Source of the DNA: Patescibacteria group bacterium | GTDB taxonomy: Bacteria; Patescibacteriota; Patescibacteriia; JAXHNJ01 | Assembly: GCA_041649715.1 (NCBI GenBank) | Contig: JBAZMP010000001.1 | Location: 309,287 to 373,286, forward strand | Length of the DNA stretch: 64,000 nt | Direction: 5' to 3' | Shown: in pieces, positions 9,037 to 34,862 of the stretch | Numbering within the stretch: position 1 is the stretch's first letter | Layout of the letters: every line of letters starts with the position of its first letter | The notes under the pieces: generated by a model | Seen by the model: the letters and a program-made list of their open reading frames with translations, nothing else | What the model was told of the DNA's origin: nothing | Databases searched by the model: none | Translations under genes and position numbers: made by a program

Positions 9037-10059
9037 ATGGAAACCAAAAATCCAATGAAAACCAAAAAGTGGCTCTGGTACGCCGCAGCGGCTCTTTTAT
9101 GTTTTATCGCCATCGCCGCTTTTGCCTGGAGCGCGGCCAATAAGAGCAAGAATACGAACGCGGTGGCCGTGGCCAATAAAAACGTAAATTCGGCTGCTAA
9201 TTCCAACGCCGCAGCTGGTCAGAACGCCAATAGCAGTCTGGCCAATACCAATACGAACACCAATAATAATACTAATGCCAGCGCCAATACCAACGCTAGC
9301 CAGATCGTGACCGCGGCCAAGACCATTGATGAAACAGCCATTACGCTGGTGCAAAAAAGTACCGGCCACTGCGAAGCCTTGGCTCCTTTGGACTGGTCTT
9401 TTGTCACCAATGCCGAAGGGAGCGGCGCGGATCTTTATTCCGCCGATAAATCCTTGAAAGCCGCCATGCACGCCGGCTGGGGGATCTCGGCCGTCTATAC
9501 CTACATGTATCCGACCGTGGATTCTTTTCTTTCCGCCTGGCTCGGTTATGCTTATACCGGTTCATTTACCAACGGAGGCATTACCTTGGCCGCCGCCCAG
9601 GATGTTTATGAAGGTTTTATCCAGCGGGAATTTACCACCTCAAACGGCCGCAAAGGGGTGGCGATATACAAGACCTACAATTTCGGCGACCCGACCATGT
9701 ACGTGGTTTCCGTTTATATCGCCGATACGGCCAGCGACAAGTGGGAGACCAGCGGCGCTCAGCCATTTTACGTCGCCCTGACCATCCGCTGCGTCACCCA
9801 GCTCCGGCCGGTAACTTCCAGCGTTGATCCTTACACTTCTGATCCGGGCAGTTCTTCTGACAATCCCGAAGTGGGCCTGTCTGACAAATGGACCGAAGCC
9901 ATTATGGGTTATGAAAATGTCTATTCCCCGACCACGGGGGAGCATTACGAAGCGCCCCTTACTTCCGAGTGGCAGGGCGGTCCGCAAGGAACCGGTTATT
10001 ACCGCAGCCTTCCCAATGGCGGTTATGAAAAACTTGAACCGGGGTTTGGAGAGTACTAG
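9037..10059 (+). CDS. Membrane-anchored extracytoplasmic protein of unknown function with an Asn-rich linker
   Basis: 340 aa. A basic N-terminus and one TM helix (WLWYAAAALLCFIAIAAFAW) are followed by an NTN/NAN low-complexity linker and a globular domain. GC content is markedly higher than in the neighbouring genes. Confidence 0.6.
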   Translation: METKNPMKTKKWLWYAAAALLCFIAIAAFAWSAANKSKNTNAVAVANKNVNSAANSNAAAGQNANSSLANTNTNTNNNTNASANTNASQIVTAAKTIDETAITLVQKSTGHCEALAPLDWSFVTNAEGSGADLYSADKSLKAAMHAGWGISAVYTYMYPTVDSFLSAWLGYAYTGSFTNGGITLAAAQDVYEGFIQREFTTSNGRKGVAIYKTYNFGDPTMYVVSVYIADTASDKWETSGAQPFYVALTIRCVTQLRPVTSSVDPYTSDPGSSSDNPEVGLSDKWTEAIMGYENVYSPTTGEHYEAPLTSEWQGGPQGTGYYRSLPNGGYEKLEPGFGEY

Positions 10060-11637: not shown

Positions 11638-12531
11638 ATGCAAAAAAAATCCTGGCTTAGCCTCATTTATTTTCTGGTTTTTGGCTTATTAATAATTTTT
11701 ACTTTCTTATTCAAAAGCCGTTCTCTGCTGTATGTAGTAATTCCCATTTTTTTTGGTTTTATCGTGGTTTTGAGTTTGATAAATGTTGGAGGCAAGATGT
11801 TTTCTTTTTCCAAAGGTTTGATGACCATGAGTAAAACCGGGCCGGTTTTTACCTCTAAGGTCTGGTCTTGGCGGGAAGGGGAAACGATTGATTTCGCCGA
11901 TATTTTTCCGGGGTTGAAGGACGTGACCTCATTTTTCAGTGAAATGCCACTGCCGAAAATAAAACCGGAGAGAGTGGCGATTGGAGAAAAAGAGGGGGTG
12001 AATTATAATATTTACCGGCTTAATTTCACGAATATCGTAAAAGTTCCGGCCAGCCGCAAACCGGGCTTCCGGCCGCTGATAATCCACGGGGTTAAAGCGC
12101 CGGGAATGAGCGGGGGCTTGAATTCAAGTGTGAGCCAGAGCTTTAATATTTTGCAGGCCAGATTGACTTTTCCTGGATCTTTCCCCGGCCGTTTGATTAT
12201 CCAAAGAGTTGCCGGGCCGACCTTGGGCCGTGATATTGATCTGGAAAGCGTGGAATTTAACAAAAAAGTTCAGGTCTATACCAATCAGGCCAAAATCGCT
12301 TACCAGATTTTATCCCCGGATTTTATGGACTGGTATTTGAAACTGCCTGATCAGCCGGTTATCGCTTTTGACCAACAGATATGTTATTACACCCTGATCG
12401 GATTCAGTAATAAGGGTGAGGAAGAGATTACCGCCGATATTGAACAATTGATTGACCGCGTCCTGCATTCAGGGGCTTTAACCTTATCCCAAATCCCAAA
12501 TCCTAAATCCAAAACAAATCCCAATATCTAA
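11638..12531 (+). CDS. Hypothetical membrane protein (two N-terminal TM helices plus a globular domain)
   Basis: 297 aa. TM helices are LSLIYFLVFGLLIIFTFLF and VVIPIFFGFIVVLSLINV. The last roughly 12 codons (PNPKSKTNPNI) are encoded by an AAATCC-type repeat. Confidence 0.55.
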   Translation: MQKKSWLSLIYFLVFGLLIIFTFLFKSRSLLYVVIPIFFGFIVVLSLINVGGKMFSFSKGLMTMSKTGPVFTSKVWSWREGETIDFADIFPGLKDVTSFFSEMPLPKIKPERVAIGEKEGVNYNIYRLNFTNIVKVPASRKPGFRPLIIHGVKAPGMSGGLNSSVSQSFNILQARLTFPGSFPGRLIIQRVAGPTLGRDIDLESVEFNKKVQVYTNQAKIAYQILSPDFMDWYLKLPDQPVIAFDQQICYYTLIGFSNKGEEEITADIEQLIDRVLHSGALTLSQIPNPKSKTNPNI

Positions 12532-14480: not shown

Positions 14481-14499
14481 TTGGTATTAATTTGTTATT

Positions 14500-14672
14500 T
14501 TTAAATCCTAAATTCTAAATCCGAAAATCTAAACAAATCTTAAATTCTAAATTCCAAATTCAAAACCGGTTTGGAACATTGGAAAATTAGGGCTTCGAAT
14601 TTGTTTCGGATTTAGGATTTCGCGCTTCGAATTTATCTGAATTTTGGTGCTTGTAATTTGGAATTTTGAAGA
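14500..14672. repeat. Long AT-rich palindromic hairpin of the AAATYC/GAATTT family (probable bidirectional terminator)
   Basis: AAATCCTAAATTCTAAATCCGAAAATCT...TTTCGGATTTAGGATTT. The two arms are near-perfect reverse complements across more than 60 nt. Confidence 0.65.
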
Positions 14673-14699
14673 ATTATATCGTATAGATTATTAATTACC

Positions 14700-15125
14700 A
14701 TGCCTGAAACAATTTTCAACCCCCCTGGTTATCAGAAAAATAATAAATCAAAGAAAATTGTGATCATTGTTCTTGTCATTCTTGTTTTGTTAGTCGCGGC
14801 TTTCTTTTTCGGCTATTTTTACCAGAAAAATAAGTGGAGTGTAAGCGACATATTTACTTTTGAATCAGATTGCGCCAAAGAAGGCGGGAGTATTTCCGTT
14901 ACTGGTAAGTTCAAGAAGTGCTGCGGGTCTTTAAAGCCAGTCCGCCCATATAGGATGATAGATACGGCGCAAGACACAAAACCACTTCTATTAACAGTTG
15001 ATTTCTATAAGGGAGACATTGCTTGTACCGGTCTTCCTGGCGGTATGGATTGCGTCCGTTGCGGGAATGGCAAATGCGGTAAAGGCGAGAATATCTGTAA
15101 TTGCCCGCAGGATTGCAAGGAATGA
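14700..15125 (+). CDS. Signal-anchored Cys-rich extracytoplasmic small protein
   Basis: 141 aa. A TM anchor ending in GYFY is followed by a domain with 11 Cys (CCGSLKP, CTGLPGGMDCVRCGNGKCGKGENICNCPQDC). Confidence 0.6.
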   Translation: MPETIFNPPGYQKNNKSKKIVIIVLVILVLLVAAFFFGYFYQKNKWSVSDIFTFESDCAKEGGSISVTGKFKKCCGSLKPVRPYRMIDTAQDTKPLLLTVDFYKGDIACTGLPGGMDCVRCGNGKCGKGENICNCPQDCKE

Positions 15126-15146
15126 GAATATTAGTATTAAAATAAT

Positions 15147-16421
15147 ATGGAAGATCAAACTCAACCCAATCCGACAAAGGAAAAACGCCCTCAAAAAACC
15201 AGCTTGCTGGCCATTCTTATTTTGATCGCCGTCCTGCTCGGGGCGATCATTATCGCCGGCTACTTCTATTTTGTTCCGGCGGACAGGGAGAATAAAAACA
15301 CCAATCAGGTGGCGGTCAGTTCCAATTCTAATGAAAATCAGAACACCAGCCAGCTTTTAGGCGGAGATGAAGATGAGCACGGCTGCAAAGGTTCGGCCGG
15401 CTATTCTTGGTGCGAAGCTAAGCAGAAATGCTTGAGAATTTGGGAGGAGGTCTGCCCAAGTAGCTTTAATAATTTGGGAAATAGCGCCCCCACTTTATCG
15501 GGCGAATTCTGGATGATTCAAAATTATACCGCTAAATTAAAGAGTATTAATATTGCCAATAAAGAGATTAAAGAATGGACGGAATATCCAAATCAACCTC
15601 AAAATAGCGAAAATGAAATACCGGCGCCAAAAGGTAATCACATGTTATATAATAAAAAAGATACTGACGGAAATTGGGCCTTGTATGTTTCTGAGACCAA
15701 TGGTAAAAATGAAAAACTTATTACGACTGGCGGGGTGTGTACAGATGGTCCGTGTTCCAAAGAAAATACTTATGGAGTGGGCAAAATTTCTCCGGATGGG
15801 CAATATGTTTCATTCAGAAAAGGAGAAAATAGCATTGTTAAAAATCTTGTCACTGATAAAGAAACCATTCTGCCCTTAAAACTGACTCTCGCTCCTGCGG
15901 CTTTTACTCCTCTTCAGACATATGTTTACACAGTTTCACAAAAGGAAAATGAGGTTAATTATTACCTGGAAATCGGCAAGTTATCAGATACTGAATTTCG
16001 CTTGATTAATCCCGCACTTTCCCTTTTTTATGCCATTGATTTTTCGCCGGACGAAAATTATTTTGCCATTAGTGGTAATCAGGGAGTTTGCATCTATGAG
16101 ACAAAGACCGGCCAGTTATTAGACAAAAAAGAGAGTAATGATATGTCAGGAATTTACGAAATAGTTTGGCTATCAAACAATAAGCTTATTTTGCGGACTC
16201 ATAATTCAGTTTTGCATCAATTTACTTTAATCGATCATAAAATTACCGAAGAAATAATATACAAAGCCGAATATTTAGACTCCCTTTTTAGAATAGATGA
16301 CAATAATGTTCTTTTGCGATCCGGCGGTAATGATTTGATAGTGATTAATACGACTACCGGAACTATAACCGAAGTTTATTCAAGTGACGATTATTTCGCT
16401 ATTTTAGGGTCAAAGGAATAA
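15147..16421 (+). CDS. Signal-anchored secreted protein with a Cys-rich module and TolB-like beta-propeller repeats
   Basis: 424 aa. The N-terminal leader KEKRPQKTSLLAILILIAVLLGAIIIAGYFYFVPADRENKN is shared with the next gene. Repeats such as SPDGQYVSF and FSPDENYFAISG are propeller-like. Confidence 0.6.
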   Translation: MEDQTQPNPTKEKRPQKTSLLAILILIAVLLGAIIIAGYFYFVPADRENKNTNQVAVSSNSNENQNTSQLLGGDEDEHGCKGSAGYSWCEAKQKCLRIWEEVCPSSFNNLGNSAPTLSGEFWMIQNYTAKLKSINIANKEIKEWTEYPNQPQNSENEIPAPKGNHMLYNKKDTDGNWALYVSETNGKNEKLITTGGVCTDGPCSKENTYGVGKISPDGQYVSFRKGENSIVKNLVTDKETILPLKLTLAPAAFTPLQTYVYTVSQKENEVNYYLEIGKLSDTEFRLINPALSLFYAIDFSPDENYFAISGNQGVCIYETKTGQLLDKKESNDMSGIYEIVWLSNNKLILRTHNSVLHQFTLIDHKITEEIIYKAEYLDSLFRIDDNNVLLRSGGNDLIVINTTTGTITEVYSSDDYFAILGSKE

Positions 16422-16447
16422 TTATATTAAATAGTCGAAAAAAATAA

Positions 16448-17311
16448 ATGCCAAACCAACCTCAAATTAATCCGCCAAAGGAAAAACGCCCTCAAAAAAC
16501 CAGCTTGCTGGCCATTCTTATTTTGGTCGCCGTTCTGCTCGGCGCGATCATTGTCGCCGGCTATTTCTATTTTGTTCCGGCGGACAGGGAAAACAAAAAT
16601 GCCAGCCAGGCGGCGGAAAACTCTAATATTAATGTAAATTTAAATAATAATGAAAATCAGAATAATAATTCAAATAATAGCGCTAGCGCAAATGAGGTAA
16701 AGACAGCCATTGGCTTGGTCAGCTTAAGCTGTGCCACGAAATCTGACTGTGTGTTAATTGGTAAAGAGAAAGATTATGATTGTTGCGGCATTGGTAGTTG
16801 CCTCGACTATTCTCAGGGGATTTGGGTGGCGGTGAATAATCGTTCTTTCCAAGAAATTATCGAGCGACATAATTGTAATATAGCCTGCCCTGATAATATG
16901 GAGGTATGTTTTTATAATGATTATTATGAAGTAGGATGCCAGAATAACCGCTGTCAAACGATAAAAGTAACTAAGACTACTGAAAATTCCGATTCAAATG
17001 AAATAAGTGTAATCGGCGGTCAGGTGAGTTTGAGTTGTTCTTCAAAGCAAGATTGTCGATTGATTGACAAAGAAAAGGACTATACCGTTTGTTGTTCTCA
17101 ATATTCTCAACCGGACTATACCAAAGGGATTTGGGTAGCGGTCAATAGTAGTTCTTTCCAAAAAATTGTTGGCTCTAACAGCGCCTGCAAATTGAAAGTC
17201 TGCCCGGATAATATGGAAGTATATTATAGCGGTAATGTTCCGTATGAAGTGGCATGCCAGAATAACCGCTGTCAAACGATAAAAATAAACAGGACTATTG
17301 TTGAGTATTAA
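16448..17311 (+). CDS. Signal-anchored secreted protein with a tandem duplicated 8-Cys domain
   Basis: 287 aa. The leader is about 92 percent identical at the DNA level to that of 15147..16421. There are two roughly 90-aa repeats (VSLSC..DC.LI.KEKDY..CC......GIWVAVN..SFQ.I......C....CPDNMEV.Y......EV.CQNNRCQTIK). Confidence 0.65.
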   Translation: MPNQPQINPPKEKRPQKTSLLAILILVAVLLGAIIVAGYFYFVPADRENKNASQAAENSNINVNLNNNENQNNNSNNSASANEVKTAIGLVSLSCATKSDCVLIGKEKDYDCCGIGSCLDYSQGIWVAVNNRSFQEIIERHNCNIACPDNMEVCFYNDYYEVGCQNNRCQTIKVTKTTENSDSNEISVIGGQVSLSCSSKQDCRLIDKEKDYTVCCSQYSQPDYTKGIWVAVNSSSFQKIVGSNSACKLKVCPDNMEVYYSGNVPYEVACQNNRCQTIKINRTIVEY

Positions 17312-17317
17312 AGAATA

Positions 17318-17368
17318 TGGACCGAATATTCACTTCGCAAACCTTAGACAAGGTAGACAAAAAATAAA
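17318..17368 (+). pseudogene. Remnant duplicate of the aspS 5' end (encodes MDRIFTSQTLDKVDKK then a stop)
   Basis: About 50 of 55 nt identical to 18660..18714, the true aspS start. Confidence 0.7.
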
Positions 17369-17376
17369 TAAAATTT

Positions 17377-18648
17377 ATGTTAAATCAAATTCAACAAAAT
17401 CAGCCTAACCAAAAGAAGCCGAAAAAAAGTCTCGCTCCAATATTAACTCTCGGTTTCATCGCCGCCCTTTTAATAGCGGCCATGTCTTTTGGGTACGTGA
17501 AATACATCAAGAATGGGAACGAGAATGCGAACAATTCAGTGGCCTGCACCATGGAGGCCAAGCTCTGTTCGGACGGCTCGGCCGTTGGCCGCGTGCCGCC
17601 TACTTGCGAGTTCGCGCCCTGCCCCAATGAAAATGGGAATTCAAATGTTAATTTAAATGCCAATGTCTCGGTCAATGCCAATGAAAATTTGAATACCAAC
17701 ACAGCGGTCAGCGAAGTAGAAAAATGGCAGAATTATCAACTGGAATACGATAAATTTGGCAAGCTCACTTCTTTTTCCTATAAGTATACCTATAATCAAC
17801 AGACAAAGATTGTTACTCCATTTGATATCGCATTATATCGCGGCTCGGTGACTCCTTATGGTGTTATTTTTTTTAAAGTCGGAGAAATGAGGCAAGCCAC
17901 GGGTACGAATATCGGAGAATTTAGCTATGAATACGGTATCAATCCGGATTTTCAATTGTTTAATTATCAGACCCAGTCTTTTAAATCATTGCCGGCTTTT
18001 TCTTTGAAACTGGCCGGAAGCCAATTTGAAAGAATTTACGCCCTGCATTTTTCCGCGACCGAACCAAAGATATTGGTTGAAATCGGAGAATACGATACCA
18101 GTAGCTCTCATTTCGAGCCGGGACTGGTAGAAAGCCAGCCGGTGAAGACCCACGGGGTGGTCTATGACGTCGTCACCAACCAGTATTTGACCGGCGACCC
18201 CTTGACGATCTATTTAGATCTGATCGGCCAAACCACGACATTGTGGAACGGTATGTCCTGGGATAGTCTGCACCAGATCGCGGTGGCGGCGCCGGGCGGG
18301 GAAGGATGTGGCGCTTATAATTCTTTGACAGTTGTCTACCTGGATCAAGAAAGAGCCGTGACCGTCGGCGGTGAAGGCAGTTTCAATTTTAAAAAAGAAA
18401 TATGCAACCCAAGTAACGGGGTAAGCCCTGATCGTAAATGGTTTGTTTTAGATGGATGCAATAACGAAAATAAATTCGACGTCAATCTCTTTAATTACGC
18501 CAGTTTTCCTGAGCCAATTCTAAAAAAACTCTCCATCTCGGTTTCGAATAATAATGTTTGTCATGTTTATGTGAAAGAATGGAATATCAGTCAGACCTAC
18601 CCGATCATTACTTTTAATGACGGCACGATTATTAATTTTAACGAATAA
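17377..18648 (+). CDS. Signal-anchored secreted protein of unknown function (Asn-rich linker)
   Basis: 423 aa. An N-terminal TM anchor is followed by NGNSNVNLNANVSVNANENLNTN and a large globular domain. The gene is flanked by the aspS-start direct repeats. Confidence 0.6.
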   Translation: MLNQIQQNQPNQKKPKKSLAPILTLGFIAALLIAAMSFGYVKYIKNGNENANNSVACTMEAKLCSDGSAVGRVPPTCEFAPCPNENGNSNVNLNANVSVNANENLNTNTAVSEVEKWQNYQLEYDKFGKLTSFSYKYTYNQQTKIVTPFDIALYRGSVTPYGVIFFKVGEMRQATGTNIGEFSYEYGINPDFQLFNYQTQSFKSLPAFSLKLAGSQFERIYALHFSATEPKILVEIGEYDTSSSHFEPGLVESQPVKTHGVVYDVVTNQYLTGDPLTIYLDLIGQTTTLWNGMSWDSLHQIAVAAPGGEGCGAYNSLTVVYLDQERAVTVGGEGSFNFKKEICNPSNGVSPDRKWFVLDGCNNENKFDVNLFNYASFPEPILKKLSISVSNNNVCHVYVKEWNISQTYPIITFNDGTIINFNE

Positions 18649-18659
18649 AATATAAAATA

Positions 18660-20039
18660 ATGGACCGCATTTTCACTTCGCAAACCTTAGACAAGGTCGA
18701 TAAAAAAATAAAGCTGGCCGGCTGGGTGCACCGGACGCGCCGGATGGGCTCGATCGTTTTTATTGACCTGCGCGACCGCGAAGGCCTGATCCAGGTGGTT
18801 TTTGACAAGCATTTTAAAGAAGCCCGGGAATTGCGGCCGGAATTTGTCATTGAGTTGGAGGGTAAAGTAGTCAAGCGCGAATTAAAAAATATCAATACGG
18901 ATTCGCCGACCGGCGAAATAGAGGTGCAGGCCACAAGCCTGAAAGTGCTGGCCAAAGCGAAGACTCCGCCTTTTGAAATTGAAAATGAAGAGCGGCAGGC
19001 CAGCGAGGAATTAAGGCTTAAATACCGCTATCTGGATCTGCGGCACGAAAGAATGAAAAAGAACCTGATCTTGCGCCACAAAGTGATCAAATTCATCCGC
19101 GACTGGCTTTCTACCTCCGGTTTTATGGAAATTGAAACGCCGCTTTTGACCAAGGGCACGCCGGAAGGGGCCAGAGAGTACATCGTCCCTTCCCGCAATT
19201 TTGCCGGCCAATTCTATGTCCTGCCGCAAAGCCCCCAGCAGTTCAAGCAATTGCTGATGGTGGCGGGCTTGGAAAAATATTTCCAGATCGCCAGATGCTT
19301 CCGCGATGAAGACGCCAGGGGAGACCGGCAGGCGGAATTTACCCAATTAGACTTGGAAATGTCCTTTGTCTCCCAGGAAGATATATTGAAGCTTTCCGAG
19401 GAATTGTTCATTCAGCTGGTCCAAAAAATCTGTCCGGAGAAAAAGATCGCCAAGATTCCTTTTCCGCGCTTAAGTTATGATGAGTCCATGAAAAAGTATA
19501 AAAGCGACAAGCCGGATCTGCGGAAGAATAAAAAAGACAATAACGAACTGGCTTTTGCCTGGGTTTTGAATCCTCCGCTTTTTGAAAAAAGCGTGACGGA
19601 AAAAAAGTGGGTTTCCACCCACCATCCTTTTACTATGCCGGTCGAGGATGATATTGAATTATTAGATAAAGAGCCAAAAAAAGTTAAAGCGCAATCCTAT
19701 GATATAGTTTTAAATGGTTTTGAAATCGGTACCGGGAGTGTCAGAATCCACGAGGCTTCCTTACAGTACAAAATATTCCAAATTTTGGGTCTGAACGAAA
19801 AAGAGATCCAGGAGCGCTTCGGCCATATGCTGGAGGCTTTTTCCTACGGCGTGCCGCCGCACGCGGGCATCGCCCCGGGTTTAGACAGGTTAGTCATGAT
19901 ATTGGCCGGCGAGCCGAATATCCGGGAAGTGATCGCTTTCCCCAAGACCGCCGATGCCCGAGATTTAATGATGGGAGCACCGTCGGAGTTACCTGAGAGT
20001 CAGGTTAAAGAGGCATATATTAAGAAACTGAAAAATTAA
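18660..20039 (+). CDS. aspS: Aspartate--tRNA ligase (short form lacking the bacterial GAD insertion)
   Basis: 459 aa. Motif 2 is FQIARCFRDEDARGDRQAEFTQLDLEMSF. The GSVRIHE motif is present. Motif 3 is PPHAGIAPGLDRLVMILAGEPNIREVIAFPKT. Confidence 0.85.
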   Translation: MDRIFTSQTLDKVDKKIKLAGWVHRTRRMGSIVFIDLRDREGLIQVVFDKHFKEARELRPEFVIELEGKVVKRELKNINTDSPTGEIEVQATSLKVLAKAKTPPFEIENEERQASEELRLKYRYLDLRHERMKKNLILRHKVIKFIRDWLSTSGFMEIETPLLTKGTPEGAREYIVPSRNFAGQFYVLPQSPQQFKQLLMVAGLEKYFQIARCFRDEDARGDRQAEFTQLDLEMSFVSQEDILKLSEELFIQLVQKICPEKKIAKIPFPRLSYDESMKKYKSDKPDLRKNKKDNNELAFAWVLNPPLFEKSVTEKKWVSTHHPFTMPVEDDIELLDKEPKKVKAQSYDIVLNGFEIGTGSVRIHEASLQYKIFQILGLNEKEIQERFGHMLEAFSYGVPPHAGIAPGLDRLVMILAGEPNIREVIAFPKTADARDLMMGAPSELPESQVKEAYIKKLKN

Positions 20040-20067
20040 ACAAAATAATTTTAGAATATTGCTAATT

Positions 20068-20195
20068 ATAAATTTCAAATTACAAATCTCAAGTTCCAAA
20101 TAAATTCCAATGACCAAAATTTCAAACTTTTTAAACTATCTGGTGTTTTGGTCATTTGATCATTGAAAGTTGGTGCTTGGAATTTGGAATTTGTT
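20068..20195. repeat. Long palindromic hairpin of the AAATYC family after aspS
   Basis: ATTCCAATGACCAAAATTTCAAAC...GTGTTTTGGTCATTTGA...TTGGAATTTGGAATTT. The arms are reverse complements. Confidence 0.6.
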
Positions 20196-20280
20196 TGACT
20201 AATATTTACAAAATAGTCGTGAACATCTCAAAATTACAGAAATATATTCTTATCACGGCCTACCTAAACCGCGGCAAAAA

Positions 20281-20542
20281 AATGAGCCGAAAAGGGTTTG
20301 AGAAATTTTATTATTCATATAAAAACAAGCCGAAAAGAGAGGATATTCAGAATATCATTACCAAGTCTTCGGAGCGCCTGATAGACAAGGAAATGCTCGT
20401 CGGCTACGGCCGGAGGACGCCCCACAAATGGTTTATCGACGAGATAAGCCTGACCGCCAAAGGCAAAAGAACAGCCAAGAAAATGTTAGGGGAACAGCAG
20501 CAGCTTCCTTTTAAAATTAACACAAAGGGAAAAAAGAAATGA
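20281..20542 (+). CDS. Hypothetical small basic protein; start uncertain (the track ORF starts at 20156 inside the hairpin)
   Basis: MSRKGFEKFYY... (87 aa). It overlaps the next gene by 4 nt (ATGA). The upstream in-frame ATG at 20156 lies within the palindrome and is less likely. Confidence 0.4.
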
Positions 20543-22032
20543 AAAAAATCATCATTATTTTCGGCTTATTATTGATCCTGGTGCCGATTAAAACTTCCGC
20601 CGACGGGATGATTGTGCCGATGCCAGATTATTACATGTATGAATCCGACCAGCGGGCGGTCATTTTGTACGAAGGCGGCACCCAGACGGAAACCATGGTC
20701 TTGTCGGTTAAGTTCCAGGGCAATGCCAAAGATTTTGCCTGGATAATTCCCGTGCCGAACCAGCCGGAGATAACCAAGGGATCGGATACTTTGTTTACGG
20801 CTGTTTCGGAGTTGACACAAGGCAATTATTATAATTATTACGGTGCGTCCGAACTGGGCTTGGGCTCGACCCGGAATGTCACTCAAGATGTAAGCGTGGT
20901 CGAGACCAAAAAAGTCGATTATTACGATATCACGACGCTGACCTCTACTGATAGCCAGGCCTTAGTTAAGTGGCTGAACGACAACGGTTATCCGTATCCC
21001 GCCGGCAGTGAATATATTTTTAACAGTTACATTACCAATAACTGGTACTTTGTCGCCTTGAAGATCGACACCACCGCCCTGGCCGGTACGGCCGCCACCA
21101 CTGATCTAAGGGAGGGCCACGCCACCCCGCTCAAATTGACGTTTAAGGCCAAAAATTTGGTTTACCCTTTAAAAATCTCTTCTGTCGTTACGGAATCTAT
21201 CACTAAAAAAACCAATACCAATACGAATAACAACCTGAATACCAACAGCCCCTATATTTTGGAGGATACAAGCACCGGTCCGGCCGTCGATAGCGCCATT
21301 TATCCTTACTATCCTTCGCAGGTGAGCGTGGAGCTTTATATTCTGGCCGACCATAAAAAGACACTGGCGAATTTCACCACCGCTTACGGCAATTGGGTGA
21401 AAAAAAGCGTTATCGAAGATTGGGCGGCGAATGACCAGGGCGATCCCTTGCTTTCCCCCTCCCGGGACAAATATTTTTTGACCAAGCTGACCCGGCAAAT
21501 GACCTATTTCCAGATGAGCGAGGATCTGTTCCCGCGGGACGCCAGCGACAATAAGAAAGTGATCAGCGGCAGTCAGTATGATTGGCTGAATCTTGAAGTT
21601 ATCCTTATGTTCCTTTTGGCGGTCAGCCTGTACACGGTTTTTATCTTTGCCATCGGTATTTTTTCGCCCCTGGGTCTGGCCTTTGTTATTTTTACGCTGG
21701 TCCAGTTTAAGGCAAAGAGTAGGGCCTGGCGGATAATCGCCTGGATCGTTCAGATAGGAGTGACGGCGGTATATTATCTGGTTGCGGCCGTGATCATTCT
21801 CGCCTTTTTAGGCAGTCCATACGGTCTGGCCGAACTGCCCCGCAGCCTGATTTCCGGCGGTTACAGTTCCAGCGAATTTCTTTCCTCTGATAGTCTGATC
21901 TGGCTCTTTACCTTTTTGCTGCCCCTGGCCGTTTTCCTGGCCCTGCCGGTTTTGACCCTGGTCTGGCAGTCAAGATACCGGAAAAATCGGGCCTTAAAAC
22001 CCGCGGCCATTAACAATTTAAATAAAAAATAA
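20539..22032 (+). CDS. Secreted protein with a C-terminal 4-TM membrane domain, unknown function
   Basis: 497 aa. Signal peptide MKKIIIIFGLLLILVPIKTSA, a large extracytoplasmic domain with a TNTNTNNNLNTN linker, and C-terminal hydrophobic helices. Confidence 0.6.
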   Translation: MKKIIIIFGLLLILVPIKTSADGMIVPMPDYYMYESDQRAVILYEGGTQTETMVLSVKFQGNAKDFAWIIPVPNQPEITKGSDTLFTAVSELTQGNYYNYYGASELGLGSTRNVTQDVSVVETKKVDYYDITTLTSTDSQALVKWLNDNGYPYPAGSEYIFNSYITNNWYFVALKIDTTALAGTAATTDLREGHATPLKLTFKAKNLVYPLKISSVVTESITKKTNTNTNNNLNTNSPYILEDTSTGPAVDSAIYPYYPSQVSVELYILADHKKTLANFTTAYGNWVKKSVIEDWAANDQGDPLLSPSRDKYFLTKLTRQMTYFQMSEDLFPRDASDNKKVISGSQYDWLNLEVILMFLLAVSLYTVFIFAIGIFSPLGLAFVIFTLVQFKAKSRAWRIIAWIVQIGVTAVYYLVAAVIILAFLGSPYGLAELPRSLISGGYSSSEFLSSDSLIWLFTFLLPLAVFLALPVLTLVWQSRYRKNRALKPAAINNLNKK

Positions 22033-34724: not shown

Positions 34725-34862
34725 TGAAATAAATTCCAATATCCAAATTCAAAACACGCCCCAGAGGCGTTTTTTTGTATTAAAAAAATGGATCGTTAGA
34801 GTTTTGGATTTCGAATTTGGAATTTGGGTATTGTTTGGAACTTGGAATTTGTGATTTGGTAT
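34725..34862. repeat. AAATYC-family palindromic hairpin with a nested canonical terminator (ACGCCCCAGAGGCGTTTTTTT)
   Basis: ATTCCAATATCCAAATTCAAAAC ... GTTTTGGATTTCGAATTTGGAATTTGG. The inner GC hairpin plus T-tract lies at 34752..34776. Confidence 0.6.

Follow-up and report, generated by a model that had tools for sequence, protein, structure and literature searches.

Mycoplasma species share the 5' region and signal peptide of their vsp and vpma genes, which are otherwise unrelated, and switching in these systems requires the Xer1 recombinase (PMC2268961). Here we describe a locus with a comparable outcome in a 64-kb stretch of DNA (the window) from an uncultured member of the Patescibacteria (Candidate Phyla Radiation, CPR), in which the interval between the asparaginyl- and aspartyl-tRNA synthetase genes, asnS and aspS, is filled by four plus-strand open reading frames (ORFs), labeled g1 to g4. 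Like vsp of M. bovis and vpma of M. agalactiae, these ORFs form a tandem surface-gene family in a reduced genome, with a conserved N-terminal export region and non-homologous mature parts. However, the vsp and vpma products are lipoproteins with an AAKC lipobox, their 5' untranslated regions (UTRs) are conserved, and they undergo Xer1 site-specific inversion around a single promoter, whereas the g1-g4 products are predicted uncleaved-type signal anchors, their 5' UTRs are not conserved, all four genes lie in one orientation, and no recombinase family appears among the genes within 10 kb. The mycoplasma genes are the closest described analog, and the likeness is one of outcome rather than machinery. 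We consider it probable that the asnS-aspS interval is a hypervariable surface-protein array, shaped by general and illegitimate recombination in which paralogous leaders and Asn-rich linkers take part. It is not a programmed cassette system, nor a dedicated one.

Paralogous outer-membrane adhesin genes with near-identical 5' segments are known from Helicobacter pylori (babA, babB, and babC) and Neisseria (opa), where RecA-type mosaics arise and ligand-binding parts are swapped. The array resembles these genes in its paralogs with shared 5' ends and in its chimeras and conversion-like mosaics, but bab and opa paralogs are dispersed, share both ends, and vary in parts that are homologous alleles, whereas g1-g4 are in tandem, share only their first 50-65 codons (the leaders), and carry bodies of different folds. 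There is also a likeness to integron cassettes and to Rhs/CDI loci with displaced C-terminal cassettes, where exchangeable 3' coding modules follow a conserved 5' part at one fixed site of the chromosome; unlike in those systems, each of g1-g4 is a whole gene that has a start and a leader of its own. A census of CPR proteins described many CPR-specific families that are extracellular and have at least one transmembrane (TM) helix, together with MdbA-like/VKOR cysteine oxidation (Meheust et al., 10.1101/335083). The Cys-rich ectodomains encoded here are consistent with that disulfide machinery; the census is one of families, and includes neither leader-sharing arrays nor domain exchange at the level of a locus. 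The shuffling of surface genes described below is of a kind already familiar; here it is found in a lineage that has received little study, and recombination has left clear scars.

Leaders and ectodomains in related loci

Close relatives of the locus were located by exact-protein look-ups of proteins that share the leaders. One of them is L082 (GCA_043812155.1), which carries asnS, a433, b356, c260, and aspS in that order, and in which AsnS is 92% and AspS 90% identical to the window proteins and the flanks are 81% identical at the nucleotide level. In three further relatives (L083, L084, and L169; AspS 91-97% amino acid identity) a gene with a b-type leader lies directly before aspS. Contig L167 (AsnS fragment 93.5% identical) carries asnS, a447, P0160 (c-type leader), and a b-leader gene, an a-c-b rather than an a-b-c order. 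DNA homology between the window and L082 runs through asnS to position 14680, after which only the leaders (76-82%), a 4-Cys module (75%), and aspS can be aligned. Leaders are 69-82% identical in nucleotides between genomes, similar to the housekeeping flanks (~81%), and the bodies of the window genes gave no DNA match to those of the close relatives beyond the 4-Cys module and the similarity between the g3 domain and P0160, whose 8-Cys domain behind a c-type leader is 76.8% nucleotide identical to the second g3 domain. Three leader types, a, b, and c, thus persist across the close clade, while gene number, gene order, and ectodomains differ.

The pairing of leaders with bodies illustrates the extent of this exchange. 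The b-type leader precedes two PsbP-like domains in b356, P0039, P0045, and P0158, the 4-Cys module and an orphan body in g2, and two 8-Cys domains in g3. The c-type leader precedes the 4-Cys module and a PsbP-like domain in c260, a single 8-Cys domain in P0160, and a different Cys module with a predicted beta-propeller in g4. PsbP-like domains occur in most of the relatives' genes (PsbP_2, PF18933: 55 bits in b356, 32 bits in P0045, and just under the cut-off in the others), and no match to this family at gathering score is present in g1-g4. Genes a433 and a447 are homologous in their C-terminal halves only (80%). The g1 leader is only weakly a-type-like, and g1 as a whole has no DNA-level counterpart in L082. 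The best explanation of this distribution is a lineage-specific tandem array whose leader types were inherited with the locus. The initial annotation had suggested a cassette or polymorphic surface-protein locus: polymorphism is borne out across L082, L083, L084, L167, and L169, with leaders kept and ectodomains replaced, but no cassette machinery accompanies it. A locus without variability and without other module copies, the outcome that the annotation had set against its own proposal, is not what was found, as the locus varies between relatives.

Two further observations were made in these contigs. L082 carries just past aspS an extra gene (12185-12478) for a 97-residue membrane-anchored Cys-rich protein that is absent from the window, from which we take it that gene flux extends to the spacer that follows aspS. 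Contig L171 (ERZ27248201) contains neighboring genes (145-981 and 1016-1237) with a related leader (MDTPKQ..PKENENENTNQ), which points to leader-sharing tandem pairs as a common feature of the group.

The leader shared by g2 and g3

A stretch of about 170 bp had been described as almost identical between g2 and g3. The similarity is real (141/161, or 87.6%, between 15175-15335 and 16476-16636), but near-identity is confined to a core of 123 nt in which the two copies agree at 115 positions (93.5%). Outside the core, identity falls to 70% over codons 1-10, 66% in the linker, and a random 30% past 15341; we therefore describe a 123-nt near-identical core within a 200-nt homologous block. The 28-47 nt upstream of the two genes are only 34-42% identical and represent unrelated 5' UTRs. 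The shared peptide was quoted correctly, and comprises 41 residues with two I/V differences. The mature domains of g2 and g3 are indeed unrelated to each other, as had been stated, with no homology between the two bodies. The core mismatches are of A/G, C/T, and G/C types. A profile built from nine leaders found no matches in a set of 5.8 billion proteins, for which short length and composition filters are likely responsible.

Recombination scars

Several scars map to the leaders, in agreement with the original suggestion that recombination takes place at the shared 5' module. The tail of the g3 leader is 83% identical to b356/P0039 and 70% to g2, whereas its core is 93.5% identical to g2 and 73-80% to the orthologs (Fisher p = 0.018 and 0.005, on a 30-nt tail), and the g2/g3 leader appears to be a conversion-like mosaic. 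The same pattern is seen in the two b-type leaders of sample ERZ27247707 (on L084 and L167, presumed to share a genome), which are 90% identical in the core and 53% in the tail. In L169, P0158 starts with the 5' UTR and first four codons (MTNQ) of the a-type gene, as in a433, fused to a b-type leader; this a/b chimera is the footprint of a deletion between neighboring gene starts. The g4 leader is likewise chimeric, with a b-type tail (17377-17427; 17 codons, 70-75% nucleotide identity to b tails) joined to a c-type helix (17428-17513); the orthologous c-type leaders lack this tail.

A scar of a different kind lies between g3 and g4, where the first 48 nt of aspS are present as a second copy (17317-17364) that can be aligned with the aspS starts of the relatives. 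Because a b-type gene abuts aspS in L083, L084, and L169, we read this remnant as a former junction of a b-type gene and aspS: it looks like a relic of g3 standing directly upstream of aspS, left by an illegitimate join that would have placed either g4 before aspS or g3 before g4. One homologous crossover in aspS and one illegitimate join on the other side would produce such a remnant. Homology-facilitated illegitimate recombination is known from natural transformation in Acinetobacter and Streptococcus pneumoniae, and its combination of a homologous anchor (here aspS) with an illegitimate join would give exactly the pattern at 17317-17364; it serves as a model for the aspS scar only. The remnant is an intact 16-codon ORF that ends 9 nt before the g4 start, and a promoter-like match, TAGACA-18-TAAAAT (17345-17374), overlaps it; the remnant could act as an upstream ORF or promoter for g4.

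From these features we infer that ordinary homologous and illegitimate recombination would find its (micro)homology in the paralogous leaders and in the repetitive, AAT/AAC-rich DNA of the linkers, and that ectodomains behind inherited leaders would in this way be replaced, duplicated, or deleted and their order changed. The near-identical g2/g3 core, the chimeric leaders, and the loss of genes would follow from unequal crossing-over and from gene conversion between leaders, and recombination would change which ectodomains are displayed.

Predicted products of g1-g4

All four ORFs that had been listed as secreted or anchored between asnS and aspS are present on the plus strand as described (Table 1), and Pfam identifies both flanking genes as class II tRNA synthetases. 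Their products correspond to NCBI entries MFA5069961-64 (WC528_01650-01665), annotated under "Patescibacteria group bacterium", and none has a Pfam match above threshold; sequence matches in the PDB are limited to the TM anchors of single-pass proteins or are absent. Kyte-Doolittle analysis in 19-residue windows identifies exactly one strongly hydrophobic segment per protein, starting at residue 15-17, preceded by a basic K/R tail and followed by an N/T/S/Q-rich linker and then by Cys-rich modules. The products are predicted to be Sec-dependent signal-anchored (type II, N-in) membrane proteins, with cleavage as a possible variant. Each would consist of a short basic cytoplasmic tail, a 20-25-residue hydrophobic anchor ending in G-Y, and a low-complexity Asn/Thr-rich linker, beyond which would lie small disulfide-rich modules and a globular ectodomain. 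Insertion would be N-in/C-out, with the anchor and linker holding the products at the surface, and the ectodomain cysteines would be oxidized by the MdbA/VKOR-type system reported for the CPR (10.1101/335083). The common architecture noted for g1-g4 holds insofar as each has the single N-terminal hydrophobic segment, but the same anchor and N/T/S/Q-rich linker are found in at least four other window genes (at 9037, 28740, 33427, and 37929); the design is therefore generic in this genome and not a hallmark of the cluster.

The g2 body had been described as a Cys module with beta-propeller repeats. The first part stands: the 4-Cys module GGDEDEHGCKGSAGYSWCEAKQKCLRIWEEVCP spans 33 residues and is the source of nearly all 187 database matches. 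For the propeller there are only WD40 and PQQ matches, all below the Pfam threshold; the rest of the body is an orphan, and may be a beta-propeller, a fold that is not established by such matches. The mini-domain itself, GYSWCEAKQKCLRIWEE (15360-15458, g2 residues 72-104), has no Pfam model and is present in more than 150 proteins of CPR, DPANN archaea, and other organisms, as well as in one eukaryotic transcriptome entry. Tandem arrangements are frequent (four copies in P0001), and Kazal, DUF333, DUF5667, and serpin domains are found next to it. The 90%-identity cluster that contains g2 (P0199/P0200) is represented by P0200, an unrelated 57-residue fragment with a Vps35 hit, which we take as a clustering artifact; because of it, g2 is invisible to representative-based searches and its self-match is missing.

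In the g3 body, a Cys-rich domain of 85-95 residues is duplicated in tandem (repeats D2, D5, and D12, 83-86% nucleotide identity), as had been proposed, except that the two copies contain 10 and 8 Cys rather than eight each. This domain belongs to a family of about 35 cluster representatives without a Pfam model, and gave no fold match in the PDB with a structure model that is only partly confident. The g4 body, of about 320 residues, has six homologs at 37-51% identity, and members of its family are also found behind unrelated leaders, adjoining ABC transporter genes in another organism. Its AlphaFold 2 model is all-beta (pLDDT 84.7, pTM 0.81) and is matched by Foldseek to Kelch and TolB propellers with a probability of 1.0, though with TM-scores of only 0.25-0.44, and the body is predicted on this model to be a Kelch/TolB-like beta-propeller. 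Ahead of it lies an unannotated mini-domain, CTMEAKLCxDGSAVGRxxPxCEFAPCP (17545-17625, residues 57-83), that occurs in many exported proteins (e.g., P0112, P0024, and P0034). Neither hhalign nor BLASTP linked the g2 and g4 bodies to each other or to the protein of the L014 gap or of other distant gaps.

Transcription context

Spacing within the block is tight, with 21, 26, 65, and 11 nt at the g1-g2, g2-g3, g3-g4, and g4-aspS junctions, respectively. The asnS-g1 spacer probably contains the asnS terminator and the promoter region of the array. With this promoter-like spacer, the 11-65 nt spacing, hairpins after asnS and aspS, and no terminator-like hairpin found within g1-g4-aspS, the four genes and aspS probably form one transcription unit ending at aspS. 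The contents of the array are probably expressed with aspS, so that whatever occupies it would be co-expressed with an essential gene.

Motif TTGGAATTTRRAAT occurs in three intergenic spacers (14544-14664, 20072-20190, and 34810-34848; 7 hits against 0.69 expected), two of which bracket the g1-g4-aspS block and form hairpins; it may be a terminator or promoter element or a small repeat family. A 33-nt AT-rich element beginning AATTATAAATTATACATTATWAATTAT is 94-97% identical in L169 (1305-1337), L084 (1317-1349), and L082 (12554-12586); it precedes aspS in two of these relatives and another gene in the third, and may be a mobile promoter-like spacer. Downstream of aspS, a small basic protein (20156-20542) and a DUF2330 membrane protein (20539-22032; 11770-13458 in L104) are syntenic in several relatives, marking a stable right border of the variable region.

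Table 1. Features of the asnS-aspS interval and its flanks, in window coordinates.
Feature	Position	Strand	Description
asnS (asparaginyl-tRNA synthetase)	13176/13188-14480	+	Pfam tRNA-synt_2, 1.7e-74; conserved left flank of the variable interval
asnS-g1 spacer	14481-14699		Hairpin-forming repeats D4, I6, and D8; motif TTGGAATTTRRAAT; conserved with L082 to 14680
g1 (WC528_01650)	14700-15125	+	141 aa; small, predicted signal-anchored, 10 Cys
g2 (WC528_01655)	15147-16421	+	424 aa; b-type leader, Asn-rich linker, 4-Cys mini-domain 15360-15458, orphan body 15459-16418
b-type leader core, copy 1	15177-15299	+	Codons 11-51 of g2
g3 (WC528_01660 = P0029)	16448-17311	+	287 aa; b-type leader, Asn-rich linker, Cys-rich domains ~16706-16969 and ~17003-17287
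b-type leader core, copy 2	16478-16600	+	Codons 11-51 of g3
aspS-start remnant	17317-17367	+	MDRIFTSQTLDKVDKK followed by a stop; repeat D6, 92%; blastn 53 nt at 90.6%
g4 (WC528_01665 = P0121)	17377-18648	+	423 aa; chimeric leader, mini-domain 17545-17625, predicted beta-propeller body 17689-18645
aspS (aspartyl-tRNA synthetase)	18660-20039	+	Pfam tRNA-synt_2, 3.6e-117; conserved right flank
Post-aspS spacer	20040-20210		Hairpin 20113-20153; repeats I1, D8, and I7; motif TTGGAATTT, same as in the asnS-g1 spacer

Alternative explanations

The interval might instead be a hot spot of ordinary gene turnover, in which a single recent tandem duplication produced the two g2/g3 leaders, unrelated insertion and deletion events added and removed bodies, and recombination did not involve the leaders. 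More distant loci lend this some weight. AspS-anchored scans of GTDB genomes and JGI metagenomes returned Berkelbacteria-like and other Patescibacteria, the nearest AspS among the matches listed being 60-66% identical, and in these genomes asnS often precedes aspS across a gap of 34 to 3927 nt. The gaps of L014, L017, and L104 contain other N-terminally anchored plus-strand ORFs, and the remainder hold unrelated genes (Fic-like, NUDIX, or MetK-like) or are empty; the generic anchor-linker design and the single occurrence of the g2/g3 module pair in the window would also fit. Turnover without the leaders nevertheless leaves it unexplained that leaders of the close clade align at flank-like identity and yet every body differs, and that four independent junctions fall in or at leaders (the g2/g3 mosaic, the P0158 chimera, the chimeric g4 leader, and the homology that ends in the linkers). 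We regard it as unlikely.

It seems quite improbable that the leaders are held together by functional constraint only, with recognition for export, insertion, or processing maintaining them and the g2/g3 identity reflecting purifying selection rather than recent recombination. All nine aligned leaders have G-Y following the helix, and at the amino acid level the g2/g3 core differs only by two conservative I/V replacements, as constraint would predict. However, synonymous sites are nearly identical too (8 differences in the 123-nt core, six of them synonymous), whereas 18-31% of these sites differ between orthologous leaders; nor would constraint account for a g3 tail that groups with the orthologs and a core that groups with g2.

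Programmed phase or antigenic variation like that of the Mycoplasma vsp, vpma, and vsa loci, with a site-specific recombinase that brings different bodies behind a single expressed leader, is largely refuted, and we give it a very small chance. In its favor, N-terminal regions are conserved between species and the remainder is non-homologous, as in vsp and vpma (PMC2268961). Against it, all four genes lie on a single strand, each with a complete leader of its own, and the g2/g3 5' UTRs are not conserved (34-42%). There is no lipobox Cys in or just after the hydrophobic segment of any of g1-g4, the first Cys lying 15-45 residues further on. No recombinase, integrase, or reverse transcriptase appears in the precomputed Pfam lists for genes within 10 kb on either side, and no att- or attC-like sites, imperfect inverted repeats in the spacers, or inversion repeats at the gene starts were found; silent cassettes, orphan 3' cassettes, and inverted genes are likewise absent from the locus. 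A metagenome assembly artifact, in which two strains were joined at the repeated leader to give a false tandem, can hardly be entertained: breaks in relatives' contigs do fall in leaders or close to them (L167 stops within a b-type gene), indicating that the repeat troubles assemblers, but the two copies show 8 mismatches in the core and are followed by tails and bodies of their own, the effect of a mis-join at a repeat would be to collapse copies into one and not to add a second, and g1-g4 occur in identical order on a 608-kb NCBI metagenome-assembled genome contig and the 382-kb ENA contig ERZ27247363 k141_3042223.

Other described systems were considered and rejected. An integron array would be expected to have an integrase and attC sites, and neither the 10 kb on either side nor the four short spacers contain them. 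For a diversity-generating retroelement, the leader is the sole long repeat and most of its mismatches are synonymous, and the list for the same 10 kb contains no reverse transcriptase. A polymorphic toxin of the Rhs/CDI type is not supported by a conserved part of only ~50-65 codons, and no toxin Pfam match, pre-toxin motif, or small immunity ORF is present. The leaders (..KKTSLLAILIL.. and ..KKSLAPILTLGF..) lack the G-F-T-L-I-E type motif of type IV pilins (the prepilin site G|F/M-x-x-x-E), and an invertase switch is rejected in view of four genes on the same strand with no inverted repeats at their starts.

Several points weigh against a recombining surface-protein array as well. No module copy besides those of g2 and g3 was found in the 64-kb window, which is the extent of the DNA searched. 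Taken alone, the g2/g3 similarity could equally reflect duplication followed by uneven constraint, and the mosaic test depends on a very short tail. The anchor assignments derive from hydropathy windows. The GC content of the g2 and g3 bodies (33-40%, against 44-51% in the flanks) is compatible with import but equally with an Asn/Lys-rich composition. The close relatives are short metagenome contigs, with L084 and L167 only presumed to be parts of one genome, and all comparisons are between species-level relatives (~81% nucleotide identity) rather than strains.

Significance for the CPR

Members of the CPR are thought to live attached to other cells, and the surface molecules that set the specificity of this attachment are almost unknown. 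The array probably serves to diversify binding domains for contact with a host or ligand, and may instead serve in escape from recognition. It also exposes three unannotated domain families, the GYSWCE..IWEE 4-Cys module, the CTMEAKLC..CEFAPCP module, and the 8-Cys domain of g3, and suggests a search recipe for reduced genomes, namely paralogous anchors at flank-like identity with unalignable bodies behind them.

A stronger form of the proposal sees the leaders as fixed handles for recombination and the locus as a site of ectodomain exchange, maintained within an essential tRNA-synthetase operon and determining attachment to host or ligand; in our view it is doubtful and somewhat improbable. 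If true, captured binding domains would automatically be expressed and membrane-anchored, and the locus would be a main determinant of which host cells or ligands are bound by these episymbiotic CPR bacteria. As a hypervariable array that probably evolves by general and illegitimate recombination, the locus offers a concrete candidate that is easily located between two universal genes; close relatives are distinguished here almost entirely by their exposed domains, and a record of how these were exchanged is still present in the DNA.

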